Sequence record: PZ386976.1
Source of the DNA: a phage
DNA length: 64,000 nt
Strand: one strand, 5' to 3'
The notes beneath the pieces are model-generated. The model worked only from the letters and a program-made list of their open reading frames with translations. It was not told where the DNA came from and made no database searches. Positions 1,610 through 35,149 of this stretch are shown here, in pieces. Each line of letters opens with the position of its first letter. Within the stretch, counting starts at the first letter, position 1. The position numbers and the translations under genes were made by a program.

Positions 1610-3085
1610 GTGAGAAGAATGGCAGATATTACAGAAACACAAGAAAGCTTACCACCATTTAGAATGGGTGAAGTAGGTTCTTTGGGTCTGAAGGTTAAGA
1701 ATGGAAGAATCTATGAAGAACCTCGTCAGGCACTAAGGTTCCCTGAAAGTATTAAAACTTTCCAATTAATGATGCGTGACCCTGCTGTAGCAGCATCTGT
1801 AAATATTATTAAGATGTTTGTCAGAAAAGTCAACTGGAGATTTGTACCTCCAAAGGGAAAAGAGCAAGACCCTAAAATGCTTGAAAGAGCAGACTTCTTT
1901 AATTCTTTAATGGATGACATGGAGCATGATTGGGCAGATTTTATTAATTCTGTAATGTCATTCTGCACTTATGGGTTCTGTGTTAATGAGAAAGTTTATA
2001 AGAAGCGACAGGGTAAAAAAGGAAAGTACCAGTCAAAATTTGATGATGGTCTAATTGGATGGGCTAAATTACCAATCAGAAACCAATCAACACTTGATAA
2101 GTGGTATTTTGACGAAGACTTTAGAAAAGTTACTGGTGTTAGACAGAATCTGAGAAATGTTTCACATATTGCTGGAGCAATTAATCTTGGAGAAAGACCA
2201 CTAACAAGAAAACTTCCACGAGCTAAATTCATGCTGTTTAAGTATGACGATGAATATGGAAACCCAGAAGGTCGTTCACCATTACTTAATGCCTATGTAC
2301 CGTGGAAGTATAAAGTTCAGATTGAAGAGTACGAAGCTGTTGGTGTTTCAAGAGACTTGGTAGGTATGCCAAAAATTGGTTTACCACCAGATTATCTGGA
2401 TGAAAATGCAGAACCTGAAAAGAAAGCTTTCGTACAATACTGCAAAACTGTTGTTAACGATATGATTGCTAATGATAGAGCAGGTTTAATCTGGCCTAGA
2501 TATATCGACCCAGATACTAAAGAGGATATTTTCGAGTTCTCATTAGTTTCTAGACAGGGTGCTAAAGCATACGATACAGGTTCTATTATTGACAGATATT
2601 CCAAGCAGATTATGATGGCATTTATGTCAGATGTTCTTGCTATGGGTCAGTCAAAATACGGTTCATTCTCTCTTGCAGATTCTAAGACAAGCTTATTAGC
2701 GATGTCAGTAGATATTCTGCTGAAGCAAATTAAGAACGTAATTAACCGTGACTTAGTTGCACAGACTTATGCTCTTAATATGTGGGACGATGAAGAACAT
2801 GTACAAATTACATATGATGATATCGAAACTCCAGACCTTGAAGCAATTGGTTCTTATATCCAGAAGACTGTTGCAGTAGGTGCTTTGGAAGTTGACAAAG
2901 AGCTATCTAACAAGCTTAGAGAGCATATTGGTCTTCCTCCTGCTGATGAGTCTCAGCCAGTATCTGAAAAGCTTTCTCCAAATAGCCAAAGCCGTTCAGG
3001 AGATGGTTATAAGACCGCTGGAGAAGGTACTGCAAAGACACCTTCAGCGAAAGACCCAAGCACAGCAAATAAGGCAAATAAATAA
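1610..3085 (+). CDS. portal protein (putative)
   Basis: 491 aa ORF immediately after terminase, before protease/scaffold and capsid genes; position-based. Confidence 0.5.
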   Translation: MRRMADITETQESLPPFRMGEVGSLGLKVKNGRIYEEPRQALRFPESIKTFQLMMRDPAVAASVNIIKMFVRKVNWRFVPPKGKEQDPKMLERADFFNSLMDDMEHDWADFINSVMSFCTYGFCVNEKVYKKRQGKKGKYQSKFDDGLIGWAKLPIRNQSTLDKWYFDEDFRKVTGVRQNLRNVSHIAGAINLGERPLTRKLPRAKFMLFKYDDEYGNPEGRSPLLNAYVPWKYKVQIEEYEAVGVSRDLVGMPKIGLPPDYLDENAEPEKKAFVQYCKTVVNDMIANDRAGLIWPRYIDPDTKEDIFEFSLVSRQGAKAYDTGSIIDRYSKQIMMAFMSDVLAMGQSKYGSFSLADSKTSLLAMSVDILLKQIKNVINRDLVAQTYALNMWDDEEHVQITYDDIETPDLEAIGSYIQKTVAVGALEVDKELSNKLREHIGLPPADESQPVSEKLSPNSQSRSGDGYKTAGEGTAKTPSAKDPSTANKANK

Positions 3086-29001: not shown

Positions 29002-30141
29002 TTACTCATAATCCCTAATAACTAGGCCAACAGGGAACTGTAAAGACCCCTTACGAGTCATCTTCTGGAACTGAACCGTTAAAGGCTTCCCGATAAACTC
29101 TTCAGGATGCTCAGCCAGATACTGCTTTTTCTCATGAGTGGTTTTCCATGAGACATCTACAAAGACGTTAGGAAGGGTCTCTACAACGAACTTGCCATGA
29201 CCACGTTTATCAGTCTTTACACCAGTCACTTTAAACTCTTCAGTGTGCATCTTCTTATGCTTAATCAAGAAGTATGAACGGTGACCGCACTCATAGAAAG
29301 ATTCTTCAGAGATTGAACGGTACATTGCACCTTCAAACTTAGCCTCAACCCACTTATCATGAGCTTCATCAAACTCTTCCCAAGAATTTACACGGCGAGA
29401 CTTAATAGGAACAACTTTACAGCCGTCTCTAAAGTCATTTAATGGTGAAGTCTCAATAATATCTCTACGCTCAGGCCACGTTTTAGTACTGTCACAGATA
29501 TCATACCAGTAGAACTTAAGTAAGTGTCTGTCAGGATTGTCTTCATTTTTAATCATGGAGACAATATCTTCTAAGTCCCACCCATGAGCATAAATCTCTC
29601 CATCAAATTCATCAACATCTTTGTGGAGCCTTAACATTGCCATAATGTCAGGTATTAGTTCAGTAGGGATTTTGTAAACAGTATTCTCACGAGAATATGC
29701 TGTAAATACACTGCCAATACTTAAGTGCCTTGAAATCCTACAACGTACACCATCAAGCTTCGGTTGAGCATCAGCAGGGAACTTCAGATACTTTGCATGA
29801 CTAACCTTTGCAGCATCATGAGCAAGCTGTACACCTACCTTTTCAGTATTCTGTGCAGACTCTTTTGTGTAAGCATAACCTTTACGGTCAACTTGCTTTT
29901 TATACTTAGCAGCAACTTCAAAGAGAGCTTGCTGTTCAGCGTTACGCTCATTCTTTTTACCGATGTTTTTAGGTTCTGCTGTATACTCTTCAAACATCAT
30001 CTTGCCATTTTCTTTACCGTAGGTTGTAATAACTTTGTCACCTACAGCAACACATGACCAAACGTTGAAGGAACCATCTTTATTTTGTTTGTATAGAATT
30101 GTCATTTTATTCCTCTGAGTGATACCAAGTATTGCAAGCAT
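29002..30141 (-). CDS. ATP-dependent DNA ligase
   Basis: ligase motif I KxDG (PKLDGVRCR); 379 aa. Confidence 0.8.
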   Translation of the reverse strand: MLAILGITQRNKMTILYKQNKDGSFNVWSCVAVGDKVITTYGKENGKMMFEEYTAEPKNIGKKNERNAEQQALFEVAAKYKKQVDRKGYAYTKESAQNTEKVGVQLAHDAAKVSHAKYLKFPADAQPKLDGVRCRISRHLSIGSVFTAYSRENTVYKIPTELIPDIMAMLRLHKDVDEFDGEIYAHGWDLEDIVSMIKNEDNPDRHLLKFYWYDICDSTKTWPERRDIIETSPLNDFRDGCKVVPIKSRRVNSWEEFDEAHDKWVEAKFEGAMYRSISEESFYECGHRSYFLIKHKKMHTEEFKVTGVKTDKRGHGKFVVETLPNVFVDVSWKTTHEKKQYLAEHPEEFIGKPLTVQFQKMTRKGSLQFPVGLVIRDYE

Positions 30142-31135: not shown

Positions 31136-31326
31136 TACTCAATGTCAATAAGTTCTTGTGCAATGCTTTTCAGATTACCTTTCAAGAAAACCTTCTCAGA
31201 ACCTGAAAGAGATGAATTGTCAATTAACCTGTTCATTCTCTCAAACAACTTCTGCTTACGGTTCTTGATAGTTTCCTTTGAAGCACCTTTCATCATCGCT
31301 GCATGGGTTCTTCCACGGTGGCTCAT
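31117..31326 (-). CDS. hypothetical basic protein
   Basis: 69 aa, Lys/Arg-rich. Confidence 0.3.
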   Translation of the reverse strand: MSHRGRTHAAMMKGASKETIKNRKQKLFERMNRLIDNSSLSGSEKVFLKGNLKSIAQELIDIEYWRHQK

Positions 31327-31387
31327 AAGCCCTCCTATACAAGATATAGTATAAGGTACTCTTCCATGAGCACCTTGTCAATACTAG

Positions 31388-31944
31388 TCAGTGTACTTCA
31401 AGCCAATTCTTACCAACTTTACCAGTACCAGTTACAAGCGTTTCCTCCTTAAGCCCTAAGTTTCTTGATGCCTGACCATACATCCAGTCAATCACTGCTT
31501 TAACATCCTGTGTCATCTCTTCTGGGCACTCCCAACTATTCTCATCGTGGTATGCTAAAAGCAATCTAGCACCAATAGCTGGTTTTCGACCATTCAGCTT
31601 TGTAAGACCCTCTTCACAAGTCCTTCTACAAGCAAGGTTGATGGCTTCATTCTGAACCTGACTTTCCGAACCCATGAGCAAGTAATTTAAAAGTTTGTGC
31701 GGAGATTTACACCACAACCATGCACCTGCTACCTTTACAAAACCACCCTTAGATATTGCAGCAGTCTTACCAAACACCTCTTCAAGAGCCTTCTTAGTGG
31801 CTTTGAAGTCTGCTTCTAAATTATCTATCAACTTCTTAATTTTAGGGAGGCGTACAAAGTATGTTTGCTTAGTTAAAGCACCTTCCTCAGTTGTAGATGC
31901 TTTAATCGTCTTAGCAAATTTCTCATCGCCAGCCCCGAACAATA
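31388..31944 (-). CDS. DNA polymerase (family A) exon 2, C-terminal part
   Basis: starts with end of motif B (FGAGDEKFAK), contains motif C (LLLAYHDENSWE) and Pol I-like C-terminus (GKNWLEVH); boundary inferred, +/-10 nt. Confidence 0.7.
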
Positions 31945-32749
31945 CATCTGGTCAATACACTCGCAAGGTGTACCAGTTCTCTTATGAACTTCTCCGCATT
32001 TCTACGGAGTGTCGGACTATATCACGTAGTAGTAGTAATACTACCGTTGCACTTGGGAATGGTCATTAGCTTACCACCCTACTCTACTCAGTTCATACGT
32101 TAAGTATGCTTTTCGATAGTCTCTGAACGTTTCTCTGTTAGGAATCTCTATAGTTATGTTATTTGCTTAGGTAGTCAATTGCCCTTTGCATATTATCAAT
32201 GCTATCTGCAAGTAACCCCAAAGCTCTATTGCAATTGTGGCACAACATGCCTCTTACTTTTCCGGTTTTGTGGTCATGGTCAACGACAAGTTTAGCCTTA
32301 TGCCGTGAACTATTCATGATAAAACCTTCACCGCCACAAATTTGACATTTGTAATCACAGTTACGAAGTAGGGTCTCAACCTCTTCTCTTTCTAAACCAT
32401 ATGTTCTCAGGTAGTAATTCTTAACTCTACCTTTCTCTCCACAATGCGAAGAACAATAAACTTGCCTTGCTGTTCTAGGCATGAACACCTTCTCACAGCT
32501 AGGACATTTCTTAGTAAGAACCCTATATTCTGCTCTTCTGTCAAATTTTAATACGCAACTTCTGCACCGTTTTTGATTGTATTGGTACGGTTTAAACTCC
32601 GTGCCACACTCAGTGCATAATCTCTCTTCGTAACCTGCCATTGTCTCTCTCCTTTGTTTTAGGAGTCCTAACAGAGACTTCGCTGCTGATTACCATATCT
32701 TTACAGACTTAGGCTTCCAGCAATTCACAACGTTTTACATGCGCCACTG
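31945..32749 (-). mobile_element. group I intron in DNA polymerase gene, carrying endonuclease VII-like ORF
   Basis: interrupts pol motif B; minus strand has R-like GTTCAGAGACTA (plus 32115-32128) and S-like GATATAGTCC (plus ~32014-32024); proposed exon 1 ends in U and intron ends in G. Confidence 0.6.
32159..32641 (-). CDS. endonuclease VII-like (His-Me finger) homing endonuclease, intron-encoded
   Basis: C-terminal VVDHDHKTGKVRGMLCHNCN matches T4 endo VII core; N-terminal Cys4 zinc ribbons; inside pol intervening sequence. Confidence 0.7.
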   Translation of the reverse strand: MAGYEERLCTECGTEFKPYQYNQKRCRSCVLKFDRRAEYRVLTKKCPSCEKVFMPRTARQVYCSSHCGEKGRVKNYYLRTYGLEREEVETLLRNCDYKCQICGGEGFIMNSSRHKAKLVVDHDHKTGKVRGMLCHNCNRALGLLADSIDNMQRAIDYLSK

Positions 32750-34922
32750 ACGCATAAATGCCATTTTTGGCTTTCTTACGGCCTTTACTAATTTCCTGAA
32801 GAAGATTTGTATCCTGAGTGGCTCGACAGGTCAAGATATCTTCCTCTTTATTAAGGCTGAAGTAGATGCTATTTAAAGTATGCGCATCAGTTCCTGAGTA
32901 CACCACGTACAAGTCATTTTCCGAATCATAATGCAAATACTTGTCAATCTCTGGGTTTAGATACTGGTCAAAATGTTTGCAATAGTATCTGCCATCCTCT
33001 TGTTTGACAAACTCAACCTCTTCTTTACCCTCTGTCACTGCTTTAGTGAACTCCTTATCACCCATAAAGTTGCACAGCAGCACAAGTTGGGCACTATTCA
33101 TATCTGCTGAAACAATATTAGTTCCTTCCTCACAAGTCCACACCTCCCTCATAGGCGCTCCATAGACAGCAGCACCAGACGGTACGTTTACAATACCATA
33201 TTGTGTCATACGTCCAGTTGAAGTACCAAACACCATTGCACCAGCACTAAGGCGACCATCAGGACGAATCTGGTTAAGCCAACCTTTTTCATCATCCTTT
33301 GAGTTCTCAATAGTTCTGCGTCGGTGCATCAAAGTGTAGTATTTCGCAATCTTCTGTCCAAGCTCACCTTCAATCGTATCATAAGATGATTCAGTAAGTT
33401 TTGGTGAAGTACGGATTAAGCAAGGTTCAAGCAAATCTGTGTATTTCTTCACAGACCAGTTATGCTCAATGTACTGTACACCTTCATGTTCAACATAACT
33501 CAAACCACACCGCTCAACCATTTCCTGCCACTTAGGATGTTTTGTAATCATCTTTTTATTGTCTTTGAAACGACAAACTTTGACAGGGCGACCATCTGAG
33601 TCTTTCTTGTAGTTCCAGTCATCTGGAATCCAACCAACTGATTTCAAGTAGTCTTTAACAACTGCTACCTGAGTCATACGAGAAACTTCAAACTCAATTG
33701 GTGTATATGGTGCATCAATCAAACCTGTGTAGCGACTTGACTCAAGTTCAAAGTGGTTAACAACGTGGCTGTTATAGTACTTCACAGTTTTGACTGTTTT
33801 TACTGGCTTCCAGTCTTTGCACTTCTTACCAATCTTTGCATTCAACTCATTGCAAATTGCACGAGCATCCTTCATTGCTACAAAACCTTCCTTGTACTCT
33901 TCACCAGTTACAGTGTTGGTTGGTGTATAGCAATTCCTTTTTTCAATGTTAAAAATCTTTGTAGTTGGCTTACCAAATGGTTTGATTTCATATGTTTGCA
34001 TCTCACCGTTACGCACCTGCTGACGATACTTTGTCTTAGGGTACTTGGTAATTCTCTTCAGTCCATCTGCATGACCAAATGTTTCAACATACTCATTCCA
34101 AGCTTTTGCAAACTCTTCTCCAGTGACTTTACCTTTGGTCTTAATAGTTGGAGGTAGATGCGGTTCAACCTCTGAAGCAAGCTCATTAGTCAATTTGTCA
34201 AGTTCCTTCACATGGAACTCCATAAGCTCTTTATCAGCTTTCCAGCCATTAATAGCTTGTTGACTCATCCAGAAAGATGTCTCTTTAGCTCGCATGTAAG
34301 TCTCATAAGTGTCTATACCACACTTCTTAAGCTTGAGATACTCGTTATCAAGTGCCCGTTTAGTTTTGGCGTTAATACGGATATCTTCTACAACACGAGT
34401 GAAGATTTCTGCATTCCACACACCCCAATGTTCAATCTCTGGTTTACGGACACCAACACGAGCACCCCATGCAGCCAAACCATGAGCACCTTTATAACCC
34501 TTTGGAGTTGGTCTATCCATCCACTGAACACGAGACTGGATAAGAGAATCCTGAAAGAAATTACTCCACGGCTTACATTTTGGATTATCAAAGTTCCATA
34601 AATCCGGTGCAATGTGATTGAAGACCCACCAGTCATAACCGAGGCCGTTATGGATACAAAGTCGTTTTGCCTTTAACGCAAACTCAACACCTTCACGTAA
34701 ACCACCCTTGATGTACTTAGTGTACTTGTGACCGAGGATAGGCTCATCTGTAAAGACCCATACAGGTGGCTCTTCATCGTCAGATTTATAGTCTGCAAAA
34801 GCCATTACGTGAACTTTAGTGAACTCAAGGAGTAAACCATCAGTCTCTGTATCACCAACTAAATGTAAGTTTTTAAAATCTACGTTTTCCATTTTTACTC
34901 CCTCTAAAATCATTAACCTCAT
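32750..34922 (-). CDS. DNA polymerase (family A) exon 1 (3'-5' exo + polymerase domain through first half of motif B)
   Basis: exo motif GDTETDGL; motif A-like IVSADMNSAQLVLL; motif B start RKKAKNGIYA; track ORF 32709..34922 reads on into intron to a stop. Confidence 0.75.
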
Positions 34923-35149
34923 ACATTACTGCAAAAAATTATAAAAAGCAAGTTGACAATGCACTTGACAAGGTGTTAATCTTTGCGAAGTGGGTTTTTA
35001 CTTAAAAGGTTACTTAACAGTTTAACTATACAGATACTTTAAAACTCTTAAAAGATTATTTAATAGCTTTTAAAAAGCTTTAAAGTATAACGTATAGAAT
35101 ACGTTAAGATAAAAGATTAAAACTTAATAGCTACTTAAAAGAGGCTTAC

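Follow-up and report, generated by a model that had tools for sequence, protein, structure and literature searches.

Within the genome of a Felixounavirus (Felix O1-like myophage), a family A DNA polymerase is encoded by two open reading frames (ORFs) with an endonuclease gene between them, which raises the question of whether the enzyme is made as two polypeptides or from one gene whose halves are rejoined in the RNA. We addressed this question by analysing a 64,000-nucleotide stretch of record PZ386976.1 (hereafter, the window). We conclude that the locus is very probably a single polymerase gene in which a group I ribozyme would carry out the splicing, while the loop of its P6a helix would encode a homing endonuclease of the DHHRN family. 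What the sequences show is the anatomy of the locus, the ribozyme family as established via near-identical ORF-less alleles, covariation, an exactly restored reading frame, polymorphism for the presence of the intron, and purifying selection acting on the endonuclease. Splicing itself, the activity of the endonuclease and its target site are predicted here from sequence.

The interrupted polymerase gene and its junction

The last 13 residues of the larger minus-strand ORF (34922..32709, 737 aa) are encoded by the intron and come between GRKKAKNGIYA and the stop codon, while the second ORF (31942..31388) opens at a TTG with FGAGDEKFAK. Read as exons (Table 1), the two meet inside a codon halfway through motif B. 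Exon 1 supplies residues 1–724 and the first base of the codon for L725, its last base being U at 32750. The motifs it encodes are Exo I (DTETDGL), motif A (SADMNSAQLVLL) and, in RKKAKNGIYA, the opening half of motif B. Exon 2 supplies the last two bases of that codon and then LFGAGDEK, the second half of motif B, followed by motif C (YHDE), the C-terminus and the stop codon. Some GenBank relatives annotate the polymerase start 10 codons further in.

Table 1. Features of the interrupted polymerase locus (window coordinates).
Feature	Coordinates	Strand	Evidence
Exon 1, family A DNA polymerase gene	34922..32750	minus	ORF list; alignment to intronless UAB_Phi87
P1 region	32739..32755	minus	standard pairs in 5/5 aligned alleles
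Group I intron, 805 nt	32749..31945	minus	gap versus intronless alleles; Rfam partial matches
Ribozyme core, 5' half (P3 5' strand, P4, P5/P5a, P6, P6a 5' strand)	32667..32738	minus	Rfam alignments; structure model; pair counts
Endonuclease ORF, 160 aa, in P6a loop	32159..32641	minus	Pfam PF02945; structure matches; pN/pS
Ribozyme, 3' half	31945..32142	minus	Rfam alignments; pair counts; covariation
Exon 2, polymerase gene	31944..31388	minus	ORF list; intronless alignment; joined protein; T7 alignment

In an alignment of the window to the intronless phage UAB_Phi87, the intron corresponds to the exact gap, and its ends coincide with those of the original prediction, which had exon 1 ending in U at 32750 and the intron ending in G at 31945. 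Removing the intron in silico generated an in-frame 2730-nt coding sequence for a protein of 909 aa (predicted mass about 100 kDa), of which 870 of 909 residues are identical to the UAB_Phi87 polymerase, with zero gaps. An alternative splice one codon shorter, also put forward originally, is ruled out because the joined protein aligns gap-free to intronless orthologues of equal length. Joining restored motif B (KNGIYA-L-LFGAGDEK), and the joined protein matched the Pfam DNA_pol_A profile (PF00476) at 59.1 bits against a cut-off of 34.3, whereas the separate halves, at 18.7 and 27.3 bits, both fell below it. Comparison of the joined protein with family A polymerases, suggested at the outset as a check, was gapless for UAB_Phi87 and, for T7 polymerase, continued through the junction (motif B, RKKAKNGIYALLFGAGDEK versus RDNAKTFIYGFLYGAGDEK) and covered motif C (HDE). 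The joined protein has its motifs in the order A, B, C, and the profile match and the T7 alignment bear out the claim of a family A polymerase split inside motif B. The predicted ligated RNA would read UAUGCGU followed directly by UAUUGUUC or, over a wider stretch, AUUUAUGCGU followed by UAUUGUUCGGGG, and the predicted joined polymerase would contain the junction-spanning peptide IYALLFGAGDEK. Intronless alleles such as those of UAB_Phi87 or Felix O1 carry TATGCACTGCTGTTCGG at the insertion site.

The ribozyme between the exons

The whole window returned zero Rfam matches at the gathering threshold (50 bits for Intron_gpI, RF00028), while a permissive scan returned two partial Intron_gpI matches of 24.6 and 17.9 bits (E = 8e-4 and 0.08). 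The 483-nt ORF interrupts the match to the model, which is why the window falls below the gathering score and has partial matches only. Alleles of this intron without the ORF are 96.5–99% identical to the window's ribozyme and gave full Intron_gpI matches at 62.2–62.9 bits, above the threshold; the group I assignment therefore holds for the element. Folding against a group I covariance model, as originally proposed, gave full matches for the ORF-less alleles and partial, sub-threshold ones for the window itself. Our own model (R1) scored 248.9 and 108.9 bits in the window on the two sides of the ORF.

In 5 alleles, every proposed helix is completely (100%) paired, and P8 and P6a show compensatory changes. 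For 10 related introns from phages, 95.4% of cells held a pair, compared with 33–42% in slid controls, and both-sided changes were found in 58 pairs; 0 of 500 shuffles reached these values. The model itself fitted this broad alignment to the structure, which somewhat inflates the pair counts. Together with the Rfam scores of the ORF-less alleles, this covariation substantiates the claim that the intervening sequence is a group I intron.

The intron begins with CAGUGGCGCAU and ends with CCAGAUG, its terminal G lying at 31945. In P1, the internal guide GCGCAU (32744..32739) is paired to AUGCGU at the end of exon 1 (32755..32750), placing a U·G pair at the 5' splice site (U32750), and the 5-nt P1 loop, CAGUG (32749..32745), pairs with UAUUG of exon 2 (31944..31940) to form P10. 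P5a is capped by a GUAA tetraloop, and the strands of P6a, which flank the ORF, lie at 32677..32667 and 32142..32132. After the P6a 3' strand, the 3' half of the ribozyme comprises P7, P7.1, P7.2, the P3 3' strand, P8, P9 (loop GAAA), P9.1, P9.2 and the terminal G. Both core elements that had been predicted between the polymerase halves are present, the R-like element GTTCAGAGACTA at 32128..32117 and the S-like element GATATAGTCC at 32023..32014; the P7 5' strand lies inside the former (GUUCAGAGACUA) and the P7 3' strand inside the latter (GAUAUAGUCC). P3 and P7 form a pseudoknot, and the core helices P3–P8 are all drawn with standard pairs only.

Subgroup IA2 is marked by two additional helices, P7.1 and P7.2, that separate P7 from the P3 3' strand, and P2 is usually present. 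In the window, two hairpins at the expected place are fully paired within the genus; they are conserved less well in distant relatives, where 87–88% of their cells are paired, with many gaps; P2 is missing from the structure model. We describe the modelled layout as IA2-like, with P7.1/P7.2 present and P2 absent, a subgroup assignment that is not strict.

That the insert is instead an intein or a group II intron is suggested only by the interruption of a conserved gene, and we regard this as vanishingly improbable. Thirteen codons into the insert, a stop codon closes the exon 1 frame, which makes in-frame protein splicing impossible, and an intein was rejected. The sole RNA-family matches in the region at E ≤ 0.1 are to Intron_gpI, the others being weak, chance-level and to unrelated families; both the R and S sequences of the core and the pseudoknot formed by P3 and P7 are those of group I introns.

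A second alternative is a true two-subunit split polymerase, with the ORFs translated separately around an inserted free-standing endonuclease gene and no splicing. GenBank records of relatives do annotate two polymerase coding sequences plus an endonuclease, and the second ORF could formally start at its TTG codon; however, reading the sequence by eye revealed no Shine–Dalgarno sequence ahead of this TTG. The break within a codon of motif B and the completeness of the intervening group I ribozyme also argue against separate subunits, as do ORF-less alleles, in which a ribozyme of 268–311 nt is all that lies between the polymerase halves. Moreover, the exon bases flanking the junction do not vary and match the guide sequence of the intron: TATGCGT before and TATTG after the insertion point are kept in 8/8 intron-bearing alleles, while intronless alleles (n = 4) vary synonymously there. 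A split enzyme thus appears very improbable.

Under the single-gene reading, the polymerase gene would be transcribed as one pre-mRNA, in which the 805-nt intervening RNA would adopt the group I fold. Free guanosine would first attack just behind U32750, the U of the U·G pair in P1; docking of the terminal G (31945), alignment of the exons by P10 and ligation would come next, so that the spliced mRNA would encode the 909-aa polymerase with motif B intact.

The endonuclease in the P6a loop

The original prediction that the intron encodes a T4 endonuclease VII-like protein is confirmed by Pfam: the product of the ORF, which contains VVDHDHKTGKVRGMLCHNCN, matched Endonuclease_7 (PF02945) at 71.8 bits (cut-off 23.6, E = 4.5e-20, residues 79–159). 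Two CxxC...CxxC modules make up its N-terminal part, while the C-terminal part is an Endo VII/DHHRN nuclease domain (D121, H122, H124, R130 and N138) with Cys 99/102/134/137 as zinc ligands, leaving the catalytic and zinc-binding residues complete. Fang et al. 2018 (Mob DNA 9:27, PMC6083498) define the motif by T4 D40, H41, H43, R54 and N62 and C23/26/58/61, and assign proteins in which it is C-terminal to an endonuclease clade; the C-terminal motif of the window's protein matches this clade, unlike the resolvase clade. Structure matches were to Hpy99I and T4 Endo VII, the latter spanning T4 residues 7–73 only, without the C-terminal dimerisation part.

An AGGAG lies 9 nt upstream of the endonuclease ATG. 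In a search for a dedicated promoter, promoter-like sites were no commoner than in shuffles, with none just upstream of the ORF. In T4 introns, a hairpin hides the ribosome-binding site of the endonuclease. Here, a CUCCU could pair with the AGGAG, but the local fold was no better than in shuffles (z = -1.16), which lends such a hairpin no support.

The ORF in the window is intact and under purifying selection, with pN/pS values of 0.05–0.16 even when the lineages compared are saturated at synonymous sites. In a mixed infection, the encoded homing endonuclease would nick or cut polymerase alleles that lack the intron, close to the region encoding motif B, and repair from intron-bearing genomes would then transfer the intron, with neighbouring exon bases, to the cleaved allele. 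Indirect support for such homing comes from the presence or absence of the intron among relatives, the invariant exon bases beside it and the purifying selection on the ORF.

It is also conceivable, although unlikely, that the ribozyme splices while the endonuclease is a decaying passenger or has been recruited to another role (maturase or repair nuclease). Loss of the endonuclease is tolerated, as VpaE1 has a frameshift in the ORF and Tf and EC106 have a deletion of it, and a Felixounavirus comparison took the protein of FSL SP-107 for a repair Endo VII of the T4 type (PMC8300805). Against this alternative stand the retention of every DHHRN catalytic and zinc residue in the window, the low pN/pS, the C-terminal position of the motif and the missing dimerisation part. 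An active homing enzyme remains our preferred reading.

Related introns and allele states

The element type is already well known, and the endonucleases of this intron in relatives have already been called intron-encoded. In phage T4, the group I introns of td, nrdB and nrdD likewise interrupt nucleotide-metabolism genes of an enterobacterial myovirus. In the td and nrdB introns, a peripheral loop contains the endonuclease ORF, whereas the T4 host genes and endonuclease families (GIY-YIG for I-TevI and I-TevII) differ from those of the window.

JH2, EC6 and FSL SP-010 harbour the orthologous intron, with the same insertion site, ribozyme and endonuclease family and 88.9–94.4% DNA identity across the locus. 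The window is a different isolate, and the database sequence that matches it best is 96.7% identical. The Endo VII-motif proteins of these three phages are those called intron-encoded by Fang et al. (PMC6083498), where, in the portion drawn on here, these myoviruses receive one sentence, in which the host gene is unnamed, the ribozyme undescribed and no splicing test reported. A literature search for the structure or splicing of this intron in Felix O1-like phages found no paper describing it.

Two more distant phages interrupt motif B in a comparable manner. In the T7-like Yersinia phage Berlin, a family A polymerase is interrupted in motif B by a group I intron with an endonuclease VII ORF, apparently in the P6 region (by-eye reading); the endonuclease of a Berlin-like Yersinia phage is 50% identical to the window's, and the P9.1 hairpin of Berlin (GUUCAUAAGAGAAC) is identical. 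The Berlin intron lies 11 nt upstream, after base 2 of the T7 F524 codon rather than after base 1 of the F528-equivalent codon, and its ribozyme has diverged, scoring 26.9 bits with our own model, although the Berlin ORF also splits this match. RefSeq annotates the Berlin polymerase intron as a joined CDS. Pseudomonas phage vB_Ps_ZCPS13 (Pakpunavirus) shares the insertion point of the window (after TAT GGG T versus TAT GCG T), the P1 design (AUGGGU/GCCCAU) and a similar 5' core (GUAAAAC..GUG AAUU), and its endonuclease is related (41% identity). It differs in phage genus and host, and is annotated only as two polymerase ORFs.

Group I introns in phage family A polymerase genes are likewise found in the T7-like ΦI and W31, SPO1/SP82/Bastille, Pf-WMP3, phiL7 and LUZ24, all carrying a ββα-Me type endonuclease gene; these are mostly classical HNH, with LUZ24 as the exception, versus the Endo VII/DHHRN motif in the window. 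The ORF has been placed in P6a for ΦI, W31 and Pf-WMP3, the polymerase introns compared were assigned to IA2, the Pf-WMP3 intron is reported to splice and those of ΦI and W31 are described as self-splicing (PMC3428280). The same paper, from which the ΦI/W31 site is taken second-hand, gives insertion sites at E. coli Pol I positions 674, 676 and 881, compared with about 764 for the window, and the motif B site thus extends its set.

While the intron reveals no new mechanism, its recognition matters mainly for annotation. More than 90 public Felix O1-like genomes list this essential enzyme as two fragments plus an "endonuclease VII", one comparative paper takes the endonuclease for a repair enzyme (PMC8300805), and recognizing the intron yields the correct 909-aa polymerase. 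The mobile element also distorts polymerase-based phylogenies and pangenome counts in these phages, which are popular candidates for therapy and biocontrol. The locus also provides a well-sampled natural allele series for studying gain and loss of introns and endonucleases.

Of roughly 262 records of related phages, about 97 have the intron and about 42 the ORF, with intronless, ORF-less, ORF-deleted, ORF-frameshifted and ORF-bearing alleles all represented; according to its genome paper, Felix O1 itself is without introns. Between the window and phage Barry, the ribozyme is 96–100% identical, while the endonuclease ORFs are 73.5% identical, with saturated synonymous sites. The allele series, this mosaic divergence and the related endonuclease inserted 11 nt away suggest movement of the endonuclease gene between motif B introns. 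Tentatively, the locus may represent a snapshot of a whole homing cycle, with endonuclease turnover independent of the ribozyme and the gene moving among motif B introns, although we consider this rather less likely than not. Movement of an endonuclease between clustered introns resembles what the Bonocora–Shub model reportedly proposes for the origin of mobile introns.

Some relatives have a free-standing HNH gene beside the polymerase gene, and collaborative homing with it was rejected, as this gene showed no association with allele type: it co-occurs with an intronless allele in CECAV_041, an ORF-less one in Tf and an ORF-bearing one in Si3, and the window is without it. Among the ORF-less introns, the minimal form is 268 nt, and the 311-nt form retains the last codons of the deleted ORF.

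Interruption of the DNA polymerase gene and its predicted splice junction

The split polymerase ORFs of the original prediction, with the exo motif, half of motif B in each and motif C, are all present in the minus-strand ORF list (see table). Taken separately, both halves fall below the Pfam DNA_pol_A cut-off (18.7 and 27.3 versus 34.3 bits). Aligning the window with UAB_Phi87, in which the polymerase is uninterrupted (annotated as 910 aa in the UAB_Phi87 genome paper, with a single CDS of 909 codons), produced a single clean gap, the junction reading ...TAT GCA C|TG CTG TTC GGT... in UAB_Phi87 and ...TAT GCG T|[805 nt]|TA TTG TTC GGG... in the window. The gap agrees exactly with the splice sites that had been proposed from the sequence alone. 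The joined exons form an in-frame 2730-nt sequence encoding 909 aa, which aligns to the UAB_Phi87 polymerase with 870/909 identities and zero gaps, ruling out the alternative splice one codon shorter that had also been suggested. Once joined, the protein exceeds the DNA_pol_A cut-off (59.1 bits), and its alignment to T7 DNA polymerase passes through the junction (GRKKAKNGIYALLFGAGDEKFAK versus TRDNAKTFIYGFLYGAGDEKIGQ). The interrupted codon, broken after base 1, is equivalent to T7 F528, or approximately L764 in E. coli Pol I numbering.

Features of the interrupted polymerase locus, followed by the helices of the drawn intron structure
Feature	Position	Strand	Description
Polymerase first half, 737-aa ORF	34922..32709	minus	DTETDGL near N-terminus; ends ...ISKGRKKAKNGIYA then SVAHVKRCELLEA and stop
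Exon 1 end (U)	32750	minus	Gap versus UAB_Phi87
Intron, 805 nt, terminal G	32749..31945	minus	Gap versus UAB_Phi87
Endonuclease ORF, 160 aa	32641..32159	minus	Contains VVDHDHKTGKVRGMLCHNCN; Pfam Endonuclease_7 71.8 bits, cut-off 23.6
Exon 2 start	31944	minus	Gap versus UAB_Phi87
Polymerase second half, 184-aa ORF	31942..31388	minus	TTG start, FGAGDEKFAK first; YHDE inside
P1	Splice site		AUGCGU/GCGCAU, U·G at splice site
P2			Absent
P3, P4, P5/P5a	After P1		GUAA loop on P5/P5a
P6, then P6a			P6a of 11 bp; ORF in P6a loop
P7	Inside R and S elements		Bulged A
P7.1, P7.2, P8, P9	After P7		GAAA loop on P9
P9.1, P9.2, then terminal G	Intron 3' end		
P10			CAGUG/UAUUG

The longest polymerase ORF begins at the ATG at 34922 (MRLMILEGVKMENV...), while in several relatives the annotated start is MENVDF, 10 codons downstream (exon 1 CDS of 2184 nt), so that 34893-34922 precedes this alternative start. 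Downstream of the polymerase region, a 379-aa minus-strand ORF (29002-30141) shows in translation a KLDG motif (PKLDGVR) typical of ATP-dependent DNA ligases.

The insert as a group I ribozyme

At the gathering threshold, an Rfam scan of the window returned no match. A permissive scan of 31700..33000 gave two Intron_gpI matches: 32722..32632, covering P4-P6 (24.6 bits, E = 8e-4), and 32325..31992, a stretched match to the full model (17.9 bits). Their scores are sub-threshold because the ORF interrupts the intron. When the ORF is left out of the comparison, alleles of the same intron lacking the endonuclease gene match the window's ribozyme at 96.5-99.1% identity, and they score 62.2-62.9 bits across the whole Intron_gpI model (gathering score 50). 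Among these, IME338 has a 268-nt intron in which P6a is a minimal hairpin of 4 bp and no trace of an ORF is seen (locus 855-1136), while the 311-nt intron of Tf and EC106, from which the endonuclease ORF has been deleted, still ends with the last codons of the lost gene (AGC AAA TAA).

The predicted R-like and S-like core elements, GTTCAGAGACTA and GATATAGTCC, were found on the minus strand. All 85 pairs of the drawn structure are standard in five alleles, slid controls being 29-46% paired, and compensatory U-A to C-G changes occur in P8 and P6a. The interpretation of the insert as a group I intron, including its splice sites, is correct. In the P8 hairpin (32031-32043), the window has one more copy of a 3-nt repeat (UAC/UAU) than every relative examined; this looks like a slippage insertion that would enlarge the loop or add a bulge.

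We built a covariance model from the five Felixounavirus alleles and searched for related introns. The model matches the window's intron on either side of the ORF (248.9 and 108.9 bits) and identified related ORF-less introns in the primase/helicase gene of Pseudoalteromonas phage RIO-1 (annotated there as a group I intron), the DNA polymerase gene of an Avunavirus, ribonucleotide reductase genes of Shewanella and Bacillus phages, and the RNA polymerase beta gene of a Seoulvirus. In the broad alignment, which was fitted to the model's structure, 95.4% of cells were paired (33-42% in slid controls), and both partners had changed in 58/80 pairs, compared with 10-21 in slid controls; 0/500 shuffles reached the observed values. 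Acinetobacter phage P577 has two group I intron matches within 900 bases (locus 320-578 and 710-885), adjoining an HNH endonuclease gene, in a region unannotated in its record.

The junction reads TATGCGT|TATTG in 8/8 extracted intron-bearing alleles. Four intronless junctions differ (TATGCAC|TGCTG, TACGCCT|TGTTG, TATGCAC|TACTG and TACGCCC|TGTTA), all encoding Y-A-L-L. The invariant exon bases are those paired in P1 and P10, as would be expected from co-conversion together with selection for splicing. The ribozyme is predicted to excise itself from the polymerase pre-mRNA, a strong inference because records show no other polymerase copy and the interrupted gene occurs in almost a hundred viable isolates.

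The endonuclease and its divergence from the ribozyme

As predicted, the insert encodes an endonuclease VII-like protein. Two matches were obtained for its C-terminal domain: Hpy99I, a restriction enzyme (E = 1.8e-5), and T4 Endo VII, over the N-terminal catalytic domain (E = 3e-3). This C-terminal domain contains the complete residue set (D121, H122, H124, R130 and N138, with zinc ligands C99/102/134/137) of the DHHRN family, whose catalytic residues were defined by Fang et al. 2018 (PMC6083498). The N-terminal part has two CxxC...CxxC modules (Cys 9/12/26/29 and 46/49/63/67), which presumably bind DNA. Family membership and the pattern of polymorphism suggest that, in mixed infections, the enzyme would cut polymerase alleles that lack the intron, close to the sequence encoding motif B, after which repair would copy the element in.

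Against three other alleles, endonuclease pN/pS is 0.05-0.16, indicating that the gene is kept by selection; in VpaE1 a frameshift cuts it short at 101 aa (locus 1034-1494). Between the window and phage Barry, the ribozyme segments (31945-32142 and 32667-32749) are 96-100% identical, whereas the ORF (32159-32641 versus Barry locus 1056-1538) shares only 73.5% DNA and 79% protein identity, with synonymous sites saturated. Ribozyme and endonuclease passenger therefore have separate histories. Across the collection, ORF identities fall into roughly three classes (95-99%, 80-90% and 60-80%). The element is a mosaic, which might reflect either repeated homogenization of the ribozyme and its flanks or exchange of the endonuclease gene. 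This fits published ideas on independent movement of endonucleases and introns and is not a new mechanism.

Distribution, annotation and known relatives

Megablast with 31300..35000 matched 262 phage records, almost all Felix O1-like myophages of Felixounavirus and related genera infecting Escherichia, Salmonella, Shigella and Citrobacter, with a top identity of 96.7% (Salmonella phages SBA-1781 and Si3). The intron is present in approximately 97 of these records and the endonuclease ORF in approximately 42 (counted at at least 60% identity), while about 165 genomes have an uninterrupted polymerase gene. Intronless, 268-nt ORF-less, 311-nt ORF-deleted, frameshifted-ORF and intact-ORF alleles all occur in Felixounavirus and together make up a complete series of gain and decay inside a single genus. 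Related records label the region 'DNA polymerase (x2)' plus 'endonuclease VII', 'endonuclease' or 'hypothetical protein', and none of the Felix O1-like records examined has an intron feature or joined CDS.

Phage family A polymerase genes are well known to harbour group I introns carrying ββα-Me endonuclease genes, for example at sites 674 (SPO1/SP82/Bastille and Pf-WMP3), 676 (phiL7) and 881 (ΦI/W31) (PMC3428280). Endo VII-motif enzymes are found in LUZ24, Berlin and YpP-G, and those of three other phages, JH2 and EC6 (Escherichia) and FSL SP-010 (Salmonella), are called 'intron-encoded' (Fang et al. 2018, PMC6083498). These last three are Felixounaviruses with the window's very intron, so the element had already been noticed, though only in a single sentence. 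No introns were reported in the Felix O1 genome paper, and Felix O1 has none at the motif B site; a 2021 comparison of the genus read the endonuclease of FSL SP-107 as a repair enzyme like that of T4 (PMC8300805). In RefSeq the Berlin polymerase is a joined CDS; its intron (ACG TT|T ATC TAC) is inserted 11 nt further upstream than the Felixounavirus one. In Pakpunavirus vB_Ps_ZCPS13, from Pseudomonas, motif B is split at the identical point by a related intron with a related endonuclease (locus 2326-3060; junction TAT GGG T|; P1 AUGGGU/GCCCAU), the record annotating just two polymerase ORFs. The element is an instance of a well-known kind, previously flagged in the literature; its remaining use lies in correcting annotation and exploiting a well-sampled allele series.

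A free-standing HNH endonuclease gene lies directly downstream of, or overlaps, the polymerase 3' end in Tf (379-915), Si3 (379-732) and CECAV_041 (179-712; all locus coordinates). It is found alike beside intronless, ORF-less and ORF-bearing alleles, and is absent from the corresponding position in the window, just below 31388. Felixounavirus polymerase/intron sequence also occurs at 90-98% identity in records GU169904 (Staphylococcus phage SA1) and MG065664, MG065668 and MG065676 (Campylobacter phages A132, A126 and A116), which suggests mixed or mislabelled assemblies.
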